DNA from: Escherichia coli
Lineage (GTDB): Bacteria > Pseudomonadota > Gammaproteobacteria > Enterobacterales > Enterobacteriaceae
NCBI RefSeq assembly: GCF_001677475.2
Contig: NZ_CP012498.1
DNA length: 64,000 bases
Direction: 5' to 3' (one strand)
Part shown: in pieces, positions 15,001-21,000 of the stretch
Position numbering within the stretch: the first letter of the stretch is position 1
Layout: every line of letters starts with the position of its first letter
Position numbers: made by a program

Positions 15001-18000
15001 GGGTCGCTGACATTGAGAACGACAAGTTCAATCCTGTGTGTAATCACCAGCTTCATTGCTGCCGGACAAAATCAAATCTCAATCACTGAACTGGTTATCC
15101 TGTCCGGTATTAGTCGACAGAGGAGTCTGAAGTCCAATGGAACGAAAACGTACGTTAGTGAAGTAACTGTCTGATATATCAAAACATAATGGACATAGAA
15201 AACGCCATCAAAACGGTGTCTTTTTAATCGAAAATTGGCACTTAACGGACGACATTGTCTACTAATCGATTTTATCCTCTTACCGTACGTTTTCGTACGG
15301 TTGGCCCTCAAACCCCGATGAACGCTATGGTGAAGGGGGGCGCCGTATTAGCTTACTTGGACAGCATGTACTTTATGAAGTGAATGATGAGGCCAGTCGT
15401 GTCAATATCCTGGCGGTTGTAGGCCAGCGTCAGAATCCCCGATTCATTCTTTGAGTGTCCGGATTGGAACTCCATCTTCAGAGAATCGATCAACGTTCTT
15501 TAGCTCCTTCCACTAACAGCCGACCTATCTCAAACACCGCAGCTGACCGTCCCGACTTCACCGCTTCGGCTTTCTGTCCCTCAACAAACCAGTTATTACC
15601 GTCCGTTCGGACCAACTCAAACATCCATGACATATCGTAAACGTGTTCCGGGATCAGCGACCCTTCCCCGGCCAGAATACCCGCCGTTATGGAGTGGTTG
15701 CCCCCGTGCACAAAGCCAATACGCCAGGGCAACCACAGGTCAACATAGTGGTTGTTTTTATCTTGCCTCCACGGCTTCCCCTTATGGGTTCCAATGCGTG
15801 AAACGTTGTCGATATAGCGTGGTAGGCTCCAAGGCCACGGCAGCACTATGTCGCTTGCCAGCGACAACGGATAATCAGCGCCGTTCATCTCACACTCTTT
15901 CATCTTTTCGTAATATTGTATTTGGGTAAGTCCCTTAAAGAAGAACTCCTGCGGGGTCATATCCGGGCGGGCATCTGTTCCCTCCTCAGCTACCGCCAGC
16001 AAGAAATCACTCTGTACTGGCCGCACGATAGCGCGAATGAGATCTGGTAGCGCCTTAACGGGTAGTTTCTCTGCCACAGAAAGCAGATGATTGAAGCGTT
16101 TTTTTTCATTGGCTATAGTTGCTTTATCTTTCTTGTTTCGGTTCCAGAACATCACTGTCTGTAGCCCTCCTTATCGTGATCAGGATGATGGTTTTCATTC
16201 TAATGCTGTAGTAGTTTCACGTCACGCGCACGTGCATATTCTTCGAAAGCTTCGGCGTTAGCCGGTCAACCAGTTCCGCCTGGTAGGGGTCAGTTTGGAT
16301 ATGGGAAAATTTTGTACGTTAAGCGCATTATTTAACCGTAACGGATTGATTTTGTGTCAACGGCTATCGCTTTTAAATTATCGCCATTGCGGTATTGCAT
16401 TTAGGTTATCCGATTGAGTTCAACTCCCCTGAAAACAGCGTATAGCGGAGGAGTACACCCTATCGCGATAGGTAAGCCTGTTCAAAAAAACAGGCTTACC
16501 GTACAATAATTCTCTATATCCAAACTGACCCCATATACTGTGTATATACGTGGTAAATTAGGCATAAGTAGAGCCACTTATTTTAGGATGCGCGAACAAA
16601 TGAAGTTAAAGAATTGGCTTATTCCACTTATTGTCTGGATGTTTATTTATATTGGTATAAGGCTCGTATTTGATGGTGGGTGTAATGATGGGTGGAGCTC
16701 ATCATCAATTGGTCGGATGGGGGCTTGCTCACATCATGGTGGTGTCAACCATACATCCGGCTTTATAGCATTTATTTTTGCCACCATTGTGTCAGGTTGG
16801 TTACTTTTTAAAATGAATGAGGTTGAGTCAAGGAAAATAAGAAAATCCTATATCGTTGAATCAAGTTTTTTCGAAATGGAATATATTAGCTCTCCATTTA
16901 ACCCATCTGATTCTTTAAAAATTAATTCCAGTGAAATTAATTTTACTCATAGGAGCGGGTGGGATGGTATGCCTGATGAATCCATTAGAGTTGAATCATC
17001 GTATGATTTTTAAAAGATATAATTCTCCTTTCAGAGAAAATAAAAAGTGATATTGAGATGTTTAGCAGAGAAAACTCCGGTTTTGGGTGTGATGGCGAAA
17101 TAGTTTGTATTAGGTTTTTTGACGGTACTAAAGAGGTAAAATTTCAGACTCCGATGATATTTATTAATTTTGAAAATATATCAGACTCAACCCTCAAGCT
17201 GATGACTACCCTTAGGCGAAAACTGAAATTCGACTTCTAGGGAGCCGCTTGGAATTCGGAAAATAAACCACGTTAAGACTAGGTTTTAGCCAAAGGATTT
17301 TTAGGAATCGCCAGAATGGCGGGACAACAGCGGTTTTGGTGTCCGAAATCGTACGTTTATGGTGCAGTAAGTGAGAATTTATTCGTACCAGCTATGGATA
17401 CGTTACGGGCAGTGATTTTTCGCGCCAGACAGCTATTTCTTTGCTGTCCGGTTAACGGCGGTCTTACGTACAGGTTGCCGAACGCAAAATTTGTGCATTC
17501 CGGAAATTTCGGCGGTTGCGGCTTGGAACCCCTTTTATTGTTACAGGAGGCCTGGGCTTGTCTGCTACCGGTCCGGACGGGAGGGACACCGGGAATTTGA
17601 ATCCGGTTAACTGAGCCGGACATACGGTAAATAAGGAATGCAGGCAGAACGGGAAGCACTGTAGGATGAGACAGTAGTCTGGAAGTACATCAAAATTGCA
17701 ACAATAGTACGCTATTGCGTGACATAGATTCGTGACGTATAGTTACTGCATCTTATTTGTATATAACCACCATCAGGTACAAAATTATGTCTCCCGCACA
17801 AGCTAAACAAAAGCAGCATGAACGCTACGAAGCCGTAGCGGTGCAGGTTTTGCGTGGTCGTGCCGGTTACAAGCCTGCCGTAAAAAGCCGTTTCAGTAAG
17901 TCAGCCAATAGCAAATTCTCCCATACTATCGCTTTTGCCTGATCATGAACTTTGAGGCACAATAAACCATCATTCGCTGATGGTTTTTTTATGCCAGTTC

Positions 18001-21000
18001 AAGACGTTATTCCCCCCTATGAGCAGATGTACCTGCTAAATCAGCAGTTGATCTGCAACGCTGACCAGCTCAAACATGCCGTTATCACAGTTGGCGGCCA
18101 GGCTGTGCAATACTGGATATCCTATTATCATGCACAATACGGCGACAGATTGCCTGATGAGCGTCTCACCACTTCTGTTGACTGCGACTACAGTGCTCGG
18201 AAAGATGATATTGCGGTTATAGCAAAAACGCTCAACGTGAAAACGTGGGAAAACAAAGACGGTCAGCCCCCATCCCTTGCGCAGTTTATGCTTATCGATC
18301 AGGACACACACGATATCAAACGGGATGATGGACGTTTATTTGCCGTACCGGATGCGCCTGACGAGCCAAATGTGGTGGATATTATCGATCGGCCCGGAGG
18401 CTTCGACCGTTCTGATTTTCTGGGGGAAAAGCTTTACCTGCATACTGCCCCGTTTTATGTAGAAGCAACCGGCCCCGGTATGCCTGAAATGAATGAAAAG
18501 GTAAGGGTGTTGAACCCTGTAGCCTGTATGCGATCGCGCTTTAGCAATCTGATTGCCTTGCGCCGTGATGCTGAAATTGAAATTGCGCGAATTAACGCGC
18601 TCAAGATTCCGTGTTATTTCTTTCTCATCGAACAGTTTGATGAACAGCCGTTCAAAGTTGCTCGAGGAATCTTTATGGATTTATGGCGGCTCGCGAATGA
18701 CGAAAGTTGTCTGCGCCATCAGACCTTCTGGCATAGTTGGCAGGGGCCACTTCTTGAAGGGCAACAAAGTAACAACATCACTCTGATTGATATATTGGAA
18801 GGCGTCCATGCATTCCTGGAAGGGCATCTTGATGACTTTGAAATACCTGAAGCCTTTGTCACCAAAGAATTACCGATAAAGCTCGCACAGTTGCGTGAAC
18901 GCTGGGAGCGTTATGTGGTACTCAATGCTGAATGGGCAGCAAGAGGACGCAGGGGATTTGAACGTAATTACCGTGATGATTAGCCTCCTTTGAGCTGAAA
19001 GATTTGTACATGTGCAAATCACCAGAGCACCCGCTAATCTTTGTTTTAAATTAAAATGGGCAGAATATATTCCGCCCGGCTTTGTTATTTTTTTAACATA
19101 GAAAGATTGCGTCTGGTTTGTTCTTCGAAATCATCTTTTGAAGTGATGCTCTCTGATTTGTTTTCTGAAGATGCCCCTATGATGTTTTTTAACACACTTA
19201 TATCAATTGATGTAGATGTGTATCCTGTTGTTTGCTCTATAAGTTTCACCAGATTTTCTGCAGTGATTTTCTCACTGAAAAAACCACTGATTAGCGTTAA
19301 CAGTCGGGGGTCAACAGAATAAAGAGCTGCTCCGCAAATAAGAGATTGTCTGTAGAAGTCTCCCCGCATTTGTATCGGGAGAGAGTCTATTGTTTGTTGT
19401 GTCAGGTTATCCTGCGGATAAAGTGTCGGGTGCAGGTATGCCACAACTTTCTTTCTTTTTTTCGGATCACTGCTTTCCATTACGCATGCACCATTGCTTT
19501 CACCAATGCAAACTGAGGTTCATCCACCTTGTTCACTTTCAGATTCGGGAAATATTGCTTTATGTGAGGGTAAATAAGCTCGGCTCCTCCGCCAGTGAGA
19601 TAGATTCGGTTCATTCCTGAGAATGTTGAAATTTCCTGCCTGATGCTTTCTGCCAGAGATTTCACTTCCCTGTCTATTACATGAGTAATGTTTTTTATTT
19701 CAGCTACATCATTTATTAATGTCTGGAGATATTCATTATCATGTCTGTTTTTTATTAACTCATCAGCAATAAAATAATTACATGGTGTGGAGGCTTTCGT
19801 CAGCGCATTCATGACGGTATGAGTGATGCGGGATGTCCCGATTTCTGAATACCCACGGATTTCAGAAATGCCTTCAAATGCACCGAGAATTAAACCACAA
19901 TCCAGAGTGGTTCCTCCAAGATCGATAATCAGGCTGCGTTCAAGTTTGTTTACTTTATCTTTTTTTAGTGATTCAAATGCAGCTGGCAAAGATTCAGGCA
20001 TTACATTAACTTTTTTAATTTTAAATGTTTCCCCTTTATTCAGAGATATCTCACGGAGAACATTTGCCTTTTTTCTTTCTATTCTTTCTTCATTTGGTTG
20101 ATTGTCATTATCAAAGAATTCGGTTACAGGTAATGTCACTGTCAGTTCTACATCCTGTGGCTGAAGGCCGGATGTCAGCAGTGCATGATGTATGGCAAGC
20201 AAATTGGTGGTGCTGTATTGATAACTGACATGTGTTGTACCTATGACAGCAGTGCTGCCCAAATCATAGGTGTATTTTTTTCCATCCACGACGTAATTGT
20301 AAACTTTGCCGGCATTAAACAGTCCCGGGTTCCAGCCTTCTTTAAAGCTGTTTCCTGACAGACTGGTTCTTACCTCGCCATCTTCAAGCCAGGCCAGTTT
20401 TACGTTAGTTGAACCATCATCGCATGATACTTTTAGCATTTTTTTTCTTGCCTCGTTTTGAGTTTGTGTTTGTCTCAAATTGAGCATCCTTCATATAGAT
20501 GCATCTTTTTGAGTTTTTTGTTGTTCCTTATTGTGTCTCATTTTGGGTTCATGTCAAGCGATGAGGCTCTTTTAGAGTCTCTTTGTGTTCTTGTTGTGAC
20601 TCAGTTTGAGTCTCTATCGATTTCTCATTTTGCGTTACGAACTGAGACGGAAACTACTTAACCAGGCCGTGCCGGCACGTTAACCGCCCGTTTCTTTTCC
20701 GGTAAAGGATGTCGCCGTGCTCCTCTTTTTACTGCGCCGGCTGACGCGGCGCGGCATAAACGCTGCCTGTGGTCAGTGTCCCGCGTCCGGCGGGCACGGG
20801 ACGGGCGCTTTTACCGCTCCCGGCTGGCGTCGGTGACAGTGTACGCCAGCCAGTCGCCCTTTTCTGATGAACGCCCTTCAAGCCGCTTTCGCGGCATAGC
20901 CTTGCCGTCAAAAAGACGACGGCTGCGGTATTCCACGGTCGGCCTGACCCGTTACCGGACGCGGTGAACAGCCCACAGGCAGCGGGGAACGGGCACCACA

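Follow-up and report, generated by a model that had tools for sequence, protein, structure and literature searches.

The present analysis concerns a pair of genes in a 64,000-nucleotide (nt) stretch of Escherichia coli DNA (contig NZ_CP012498.1 of RefSeq assembly GCF_001677475.2), here called the window, which is an IncF-type conjugative plasmid with F-like transfer genes apparently from ~36 kb on, as judged from the sizes and order of the open reading frames (ORFs) and not from a family search. An earlier reading based on sequence alone (the sequence-only reading) had listed a solo Tn3-type inverted repeat, a small basic ORF, a terminator at the next start codon and a 330-amino acid (aa) protein, and all four features were present between 17240 and 18983 as it had placed them. 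Judging from the extent of homology with other copies, the true unit is a self-contained two-gene cassette of 1.3 kb (17674-18983), in which a sigma-70-type promoter is followed by the gene of a 51-aa basic protein, a hairpin with a run of seven U residues (U7) touching the next ATG, and the gene of the 330-aa protein. The pair is located just upstream of stbB and is convergent with it, and its current annotation is only "hypothetical protein" for both genes.

Organization of the two-gene cassette

The edges of the cassette were set by comparison with copies from a Klebsiella plasmid, Erwinia, "Martelella" and Pantoea contigs and an IncN-R plasmid. With the closest relatives, homology begins at 17671-17674, and in copies that are more diverged its start lies further in; the left edge with promoter and leader covers 17674-17786 on the plus strand, and the right end of homology falls at 18984-19038. 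Between the convergent 330-aa gene and stbB, a terminator scan gave a hairpin, GGGCGGAATATATTCTGCCC (19058-19077), predicted on the minus strand only, which likely closes the cassette as a terminator and whose position suggests a bidirectional role.

The putative promoter of the first gene consists of a -35 element TTGCGT (17715-17720), a 17-nt spacer and a -10 element TATAGT (17738-17743), all on the plus strand and ~45 nt upstream of the small ORF. It was not reported by a consensus scan, the -35 element matching at 3 of 6 positions only; in distant loci, a pattern of TTGC.. and TATA(G/T/A)T with 16 or 17 nt between them is again present ahead of the small ORF. An accessible Shine-Dalgarno (SD) sequence, AGGT (17775-17778, plus strand), precedes the small gene, which runs from the ATG at 17787 to a TGA ending at 17942 on the plus strand and encodes a candidate antitoxin or binding partner. 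As the sequence-only reading had described, the 51-aa product is rich in Lys and Arg (10 residues in total), with an isoelectric point (pI) of 10.7, and it is predicted to form an N-terminal helix followed by an extended tail. The protein lacks hydrophobic character, and searches of Pfam, NCBIfam and PADLOC gave no toxin family for it.

Conservation of the arrangement was assessed in the 22 loci for which DNA was obtained, ranging from E. coli plasmids to Photorhabdus, Aeromonas and Beggiatoa. A basic ORF of 50-61 aa (pI 9.4-11.6) was located just upstream of the large-gene homologue in all 22; these small ORFs align with one another, with Lys7 and Tyr14 invariant, and the ratio of nonsynonymous to synonymous substitution rates (dN/dS) of the small gene was 0.07-0.38, with values of 0.07-0.18 in nearly all comparisons. 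The small ORF is an obligatory, selected partner gene. In three remote relatives of a 250-280 aa class, upstream ORFs of 64-67 aa overlap the start of the large gene.

The two genes are separated by the hairpin AAACCATCA-TTCGC-TGATGGTTT (17964-17986, plus strand), with a 9-bp stem and a 5-nt loop, and by a T-run (17984-17990, plus strand; U7 in the transcript) that directly touches the ATG at 17991. A stable stem-loop followed by a U-run, as in Rho-independent terminators, is present at this site. The local fold reaches -18.1 kcal/mol (z = -2.76), with 2 of 200 shuffled sequences folding equally well, so that the hairpin, whose stability had been left to a folding check, is stable relative to shuffled sequence. 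The region holds 6 terminator-like sites compared with 2.4 +/- 1.7 expected, and because of this excess one such site alone would be weak evidence; it is the conservation of the hairpin with compensatory changes that takes it beyond chance. Specifically, folding of the 45 nt before the start codon gave a hairpin and a U-run ending at the ATG, usually of exactly 7 U, in ~18 of the 22 loci, and at one locus the hairpin is located 32 nt further upstream. The 19 hairpin-bearing loci have 14 distinct stem sequences, all of which pair (for example ACCATCA/TGATGGT, CCCTCT/AGAGGG, GCTCATC/GATGGGC and ACCCCTGTG/CATAGGGGT), and RNAalifold, even on an unrefined MAFFT alignment, recovered the stem, 5 of its 8 pairs showing double compensatory changes.

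The purine-rich 3' arm of the stem is the only SD-like sequence before the large gene. In about half of the loci it lies 5-8 nt from the AUG and pairs with the anti-SD sequence at -6 to -8.5 kcal/mol; the idea that it is a good SD in this copy was dropped, the pairing being weak (-2.5 kcal/mol), and is kept as a partial explanation only. From these features it is proposed that 17964-17990 acts as a leaky intrinsic terminator and, in addition, hides the ribosome-binding region, in which case the U-run would double as the spacer between SD and AUG and the ribosome-binding region would be locked in the stem. No plausible -10 element for a leaderless or internal promoter of the 330-aa gene was seen by eye. 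In this copy and its closest relatives, GAACU...GGCA (17947-17959) can also pair with UGCC-AGUUC (17992-18000), covering the start codon and codons 2-3 of the second gene; the pairing, apparently not conserved in distant loci, would bury the AUG further.

The second gene (17991-18983, plus strand) encodes a 330-aa acidic protein (pI 5.0) with a predicted MenT/AbiEii-like nucleotidyltransferase (NTase) fold and is the candidate toxin gene of the pair. Residues G35-G36, S62-x-D64-x-D66 (S62-V-D64-C-D66 here), D130, R183 and E197 are invariant in 32 homologues, and the same motifs are kept in relatives at E 1e-13 to 1e-7. In the structural model, G35-G36 come after a strand, S62-x-D64-x-D66 are on the next strand and D130 (with D133) is on a later one, with R183, N186, E197 and R200 in the helical lobe; the modelled positions of the invariant residues fit a polymerase-beta-type active site, and the model has the bi-lobed polymerase-beta-like NTase fold common to MenT1, MenT3 and MenT4. 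R183 and E197 are 14 residues apart compared with 15 in MenT1, their equivalence to motifs III and IV coming from spacing only, with different residue identities. In MenT3, the essential residues of C-terminal motifs III/IV are K189 and D211. Ser62 is located two residues before D64, the same arrangement as in MenT1, where the phospho-acceptor Thr39 is two residues before D41 and K137/D152 are essential (PMC11375011), and in MenT3, where the phospho-acceptor Ser78 is two residues before D80 (PMC7450476). The large gene is under purifying selection, with dN/dS values of 0.08-0.17.

An exhaustive profile search retrieved, at E < 1e-30, ~40 cluster representatives (50% identity) and, beyond these, several hundred more distant proteins, 250-280 aa long, in which the same motifs are present. 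Ten remote relatives matched no Pfam family, except for one borderline match to a DUF2204 NTase (20.1 bits vs a cut-off of 20.3), and Foldseek searches against PDB and BFVD gave nothing significant. The UniRef names of two distant members (P0053 and P0058) mention AbiEii, an assignment that was not reproduced. The link to the MenT/AbiEii class is considered real but remote; the 330-aa protein shares the fold and key residues of DUF1814 and is not a demonstrable member of it, since the sequence-profile test failed. The protein is also matched over its full length (784 bits) by PHROG entry phrog_19559, of unknown function. A phage origin was rejected, no cassette DNA being found in the 50,697 phage records of the 2025 GenBank phage collection, and phrog_19559 probably goes back to a predicted prophage or plasmid. 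In the literature searched, which was incomplete, no publication naming these proteins was found (four RefSeq accessions included), nor anything combining pKpQIL, toxin-antitoxin and nucleotidyltransferase, nor anything directly relevant on terminator-separated toxin-antitoxin genes.

Contact between the two proteins was modelled with AlphaFold as a fusion of the small protein, a 30-residue Gly/Ser linker and the large protein, using paired sequences. The small part had predicted local distance difference test (pLDDT) values of 87/89/85/92/75, including the stretch of residues 23-50 that by itself lacks secondary structure, and the linker had values of 36-39. This pattern is suggestive, being what docking of the small protein on the large one would produce.

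Distribution and decay of the gene pair

In all, 982 plasmid records carried 80% or more of the cassette, and 850 of these were from Klebsiella. Its carriers include an IncN-R plasmid and the KPC carbapenemase plasmid pKpQIL, in which it directly borders the tnpR end of Tn4401, close to repA. Among 5426 complete E. coli genomes, 378 had the cassette, often in decayed form, and only 124 of these held at least 80% of it. Chromosomal copies stand alone between unrelated housekeeping genes, at varied sites. As a side observation, in both pKpQIL (L039, NC_014016, 3819-4001) and the IncN-R plasmid (L003, ~5000) the tnpR-side end of Tn4401 directly adjoins the left edge of the cassette, at the same point (17674) where the window switches to different mobile-element debris, and this upstream edge may be a recurrent site of insertion or recombination.

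In decayed copies it is preferentially the large gene that is lost. In the chromosome of strain BL21-AI (L036, 6001-6774), the small gene is 100% identical and intact with its promoter region, and the hairpin is also intact; the large gene has a stop codon at E125, before D130, as well as an insertion-mediated truncation. At three further loci (L023, L025 and L030) the large gene is likewise truncated and the small gene intact, and the reverse, a broken small gene with an intact large one, was seen in none of the 22 loci. The BL21-AI copy is found among plasmid-like remnants such as a plasmid-type ssb and transposase fragments.

Functional interpretation

The leading explanation, which we hold at about even odds, is a MenAT1-like toxin-antitoxin system in which a leaky terminator keeps expression of the toxin gene low. 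It draws on the structural kinship with MenT, on the precedent of MenA1, the 68-aa antitoxin of MenT1 in Mycobacterium tuberculosis (PMC10435456), on the preferential loss of the large gene and on the selfish distribution of the cassette. The suspicion, voiced in the sequence-only reading, of a toxin kept silent or of regulated read-through would fit the fold, the conserved small partner and the decay pattern.

We infer termination in vivo, substrate, toxicity and neutralization as follows. A constitutive sigma-70 promoter (~17715-17743) would drive an mRNA whose first gene encodes the 51-aa basic protein with an SD of its own, and most transcripts would stop at the hairpin and U7 (17964-17990), ending exactly at the second start codon. 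The 330-aa gene would be present only on read-through transcripts, on which the purine-rich 3' arm would be locked in the stem, and termination together with the locked SD would mean that the enzyme is made in much smaller amounts than its partner. The 330-aa protein would be a polymerase-beta-type NTase of the MenT/AbiEii structural class that adds nucleotides to the 3' end of RNA, with tRNA as the leading candidate, and that arrests growth when unchecked. The small protein would bind the enzyme directly through its N-terminal helix and extended tail and neutralize it; by analogy with MenT1 Thr39 and MenT3 Ser78, induced auto-phosphorylation of the invariant Ser62 is also possible. On plasmids, such a pair could act in post-segregational killing or defence. 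If the cassette does act in toxin-antitoxin fashion or in defence, it would help resistance plasmids of clinical importance to persist; the MenT/AbiEii toxin class would then extend to a sequence family undetected by current profiles, and the cassette would represent a compact design of expression control, in which the U-run of a terminator is the spacer to the start codon of the silenced gene.

Among known systems, MenAT1 resembles the cassette in pairing a polymerase-beta-type NTase with a short protein that is encoded upstream and has a long N-terminal helix (PMC10435456), and the Ser/Thr two residues before the first catalytic Asp is a further likeness. In contrast to MenAT1, to which the cassette proteins have no detectable sequence similarity, the cassette has a terminator-like hairpin between its genes and a strongly basic partner protein; its enzyme, 330 aa long, has 27 residues inserted between GG and DxD as well as a C-terminal helical domain of larger size. 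The AbiE system (AbiEi/AbiEii) and MenAT3/MenAT4 (DUF1814, PF08843) are likewise bicistronic, with the partner gene upstream, and are found on mobile elements; unlike these, the cassette gives no PF08843 match, and its 51-aa partner differs from the COG5340 antitoxins, which are several hundred residues long and have a winged helix-turn-helix plus kinase-like architecture. We know of no described case in the DUF1814/MenT class of a terminator abutting the start codon. In the type III system ToxIN, a Rho-independent terminator between the antitoxin determinant and the toxin gene sets the ratio of the two, and the hairpin of the cassette would act alike; the cassette differs from ToxIN in having no tandem RNA repeats, in its upstream element, which is a translated and selected protein gene, and in its toxin candidate, an NTase and not an endoribonuclease. 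A type III toxin-antitoxin system was rejected on the ground that 17200-18100 contains no tandem repeats and no direct-repeat array. JHP933 of Helicobacter pylori and the fungal NTase-like protein 5uvd, both of unknown function, are also among the closest known systems.

Several points count against a MenAT1-like toxin-antitoxin system. With an acidic enzyme (pI 5.0) and a basic partner, the pair shows the opposite of the charges usual for RNA-targeting toxins and their antitoxins. No PF08843 or Pfam match at E <= 1 was obtained for the 330-aa protein or any of the 32 homologues, and there was no match in PADLOC, in NCBIfam or in a sequence-profile search of the PDB. The spacing from GG to DxD, which the sequence-only reading had called atypical, is indeed 27 residues, extra helices filling the gap in the model; DUF1814 motif I has hG[GS] and then, ~9-13 residues later, [ST]xDh[DE]h, and motif II has an acidic residue. 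The Lys of motif III would be an Arg in the 330-aa protein. As for the hairpin, described beforehand as a textbook terminator, the stem-loop, U7 and conservation stand but its strength is moderate only, the core stem alone being G+C-poor and reaching ~-6 kcal/mol with only 3 G-C pairs, and the Providencia and Beggiatoa copies are without a hairpin. The fused AlphaFold model was built from 18 sequences only, without a contact map, predicted aligned error or a control of the small protein alone. Finally, MenT2 is not toxic, so not every DUF1814-type protein is toxic (PMC7450476).

A further-reaching version of the toxin-antitoxin reading is rather unlikely. In it, the cassette would found an unrecognized family of NTase toxins with small-protein partners, the enterobacterial branch of which uses a terminator and ribosome-binding-site hairpin as a switch. 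Toxin would be set free in a burst when termination is suppressed or the hairpin melts, so that the cassette would serve in abortive infection or addiction once triggered, for example by takeover of transcription by a phage, by plasmid loss or by conjugative entry.

The best-placed alternative, possible but clearly less favored than a throttled toxin, is a non-toxic NTase with an accessory job, for which the small protein would be a regulatory or substrate-recruiting subunit, or the substrate, and the hairpin would set the stoichiometry. Such an enzyme could modify nucleic acid, a small molecule or a host factor (in plasmid establishment or anti-defence), or be an unrecognized antibiotic-modifying enzyme. 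This alternative stays in consideration because an acidic enzyme with a basic partner is atypical for a toxin/antitoxin pair and because neither PADLOC nor Pfam gave a toxin match; the invariance of K7 and Y14 in the small protein would also suit it, as would the orientation of the cassette, which is that of IncF leading-region genes, at most ~18 kb from an oriT position deduced from tra-like gene order. Against it, MenT toxins predominate among the nearest structural neighbours with a known function, decay strikes the large gene preferentially and spares the small one, the chromosomal copies stand alone in unrelated neighbourhoods like selfish modules, and a double restriction by a terminator and a masked or absent SD would be expected for a dangerous product. 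Even if not toxic, the 330-aa protein would still be a strongly selected enzyme with an obligatory 51-aa partner.

It is quite improbable that the hairpin is simply the ordinary terminator of an independent small gene, with the 330-aa gene separately expressed or silent and the abutment without regulatory meaning. The number of terminator-like sites above expectation in the window, the very weak SD of the 330-aa gene here (-2.5 kcal/mol) and the overlapping genes without a hairpin in distant relatives would agree with such an arrangement. The conservation pattern makes an accidental terminator unlikely, since in most loci the last U of the run directly precedes the ATG, even though 14 different stems occur and the flanks have diverged. 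In addition, no promoter-like sequence was seen between the hairpin and the ATG, where there is also no room for one, both genes always travel together, and the 330-aa gene, being under strong purifying selection, must be expressed.

Reversed roles, in which the small basic protein is harmful and the NTase is an enzymatic antitoxin that nucleotidylates it, as MntA does HepT (type VII), would suit the invariant Tyr and Lys and the highly basic nature of the small protein (as in nucleic-acid-binding proteins), as well as a terminator between the genes if the enzyme is needed in lower amounts than its substrate, but are very improbable in view of the BL21 copy, which has an intact small gene and promoter region with the enzyme gene broken before D130, of the same state in L023, L025 and L030, and of a small protein that is neither hydrophobic nor matched by a toxin family.

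Mobile-element debris and neighbouring features

The Tn3-family 38-bp terminal inverted repeat GGGAGCCGCTTGGAATTCGGAAAATAAACCACGTTAAG (17240-17277, plus strand), with its outer end at 17240, is located outside the cassette. It aligns with the terminal repeats of Tn3, Tn1721, Tn21 and Tn1000, with GGG...ACG(T/C)TAAG in common, and has the ~38-bp length and GGGG...ACG(T/C)TAAG form of Tn3-family terminal repeats. The term solo used in the sequence-only reading holds with a reservation, a 79% identical copy in opposite orientation being present at 9405-9443. The outer ends of the two face each other, so that they bracket no transposon. Inward-facing repeats enclosing transposase and resolution functions were not found in the window, nor was an ORF long enough for a ~1000-aa Tn3-family tnpA (ORF list, >=100 aa), the longest being one of 940 aa in the transfer-gene region, and the ORFs immediately left of 9405-9443 are IS3-type (rve) transposases. 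Having neither an inward partner nor a Tn3-family transposase, the repeat is a relic.

A probable 3' remnant of a Tn3-family tnpA (17278-17350, minus strand) appears to run into the repeat, and the two recur as one block in other plasmids. A Shewanella plasmid (L002) has a like layout of a tnpA 3' end and then a related repeat, and 17246-17358, covering the repeat and the probable remnant, occurs in thousands of IncF plasmids at 87-95% identity, for instance beside pemK. The next segment, 17351-17533, is a truncated miniature element resembling a miniature inverted-repeat transposable element (MITE), outside the cassette, with its own GGGG-initiated terminal repeat ending at 17533. It shares 82% identity with Shewanella baltica plasmid pSBAL11703 (L002, 5001-5185), in which an element of ~275 bp has both inverted GGGG-initiated ends (~4920 and 5195) and adjoins a duplicated Tn3-family tnpA 3' end and repeat. 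The stretch 17240-17673 as a whole is mobile-element debris unrelated to the gene pair, and the grouping of the repeat with the genes in the sequence-only reading does not hold, given where cassette homology starts. The cassette was likewise rejected as transposon cargo, its homology beginning at 17671-17674 and not at the repeat. An Frpo-type single-strand promoter or other structured RNA in 17280-17780 was also rejected, the stretch being a mosaic of transposon and MITE debris; it has no second copy in the window, and Rfam gave nothing at E <= 1.

The 7.8 kb between the two repeats (9444-17239) is A+T-rich, with a GC content of 29-31% at its lowest (9500-10500). Its products are unassigned proteins, among them one with a weak, sub-threshold match to HEPN_RiboL-PSP at 9762-10592 (25.9 bits vs a cut-off of 28.4), a DUF6710 protein (15490-16155, minus strand) and a Stv adhesin-domain protein (13511-13987). 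Possibly, this segment is an island of defence or accessory genes with transposon relics as borders. On the other side of the cassette, genes for StbB (19085-19480) and ParM (19480-20487), both on the minus strand, gave clear Pfam matches, and an IS21 element occupies 21677-23928. Rfam found no intron RNA within 15000-21000. A 112-aa ORF with an HNH endonuclease domain (21196-21534, minus strand) adjoins the IS21 element; it is possibly the final part of a group II intron protein, or else another truncated gene.

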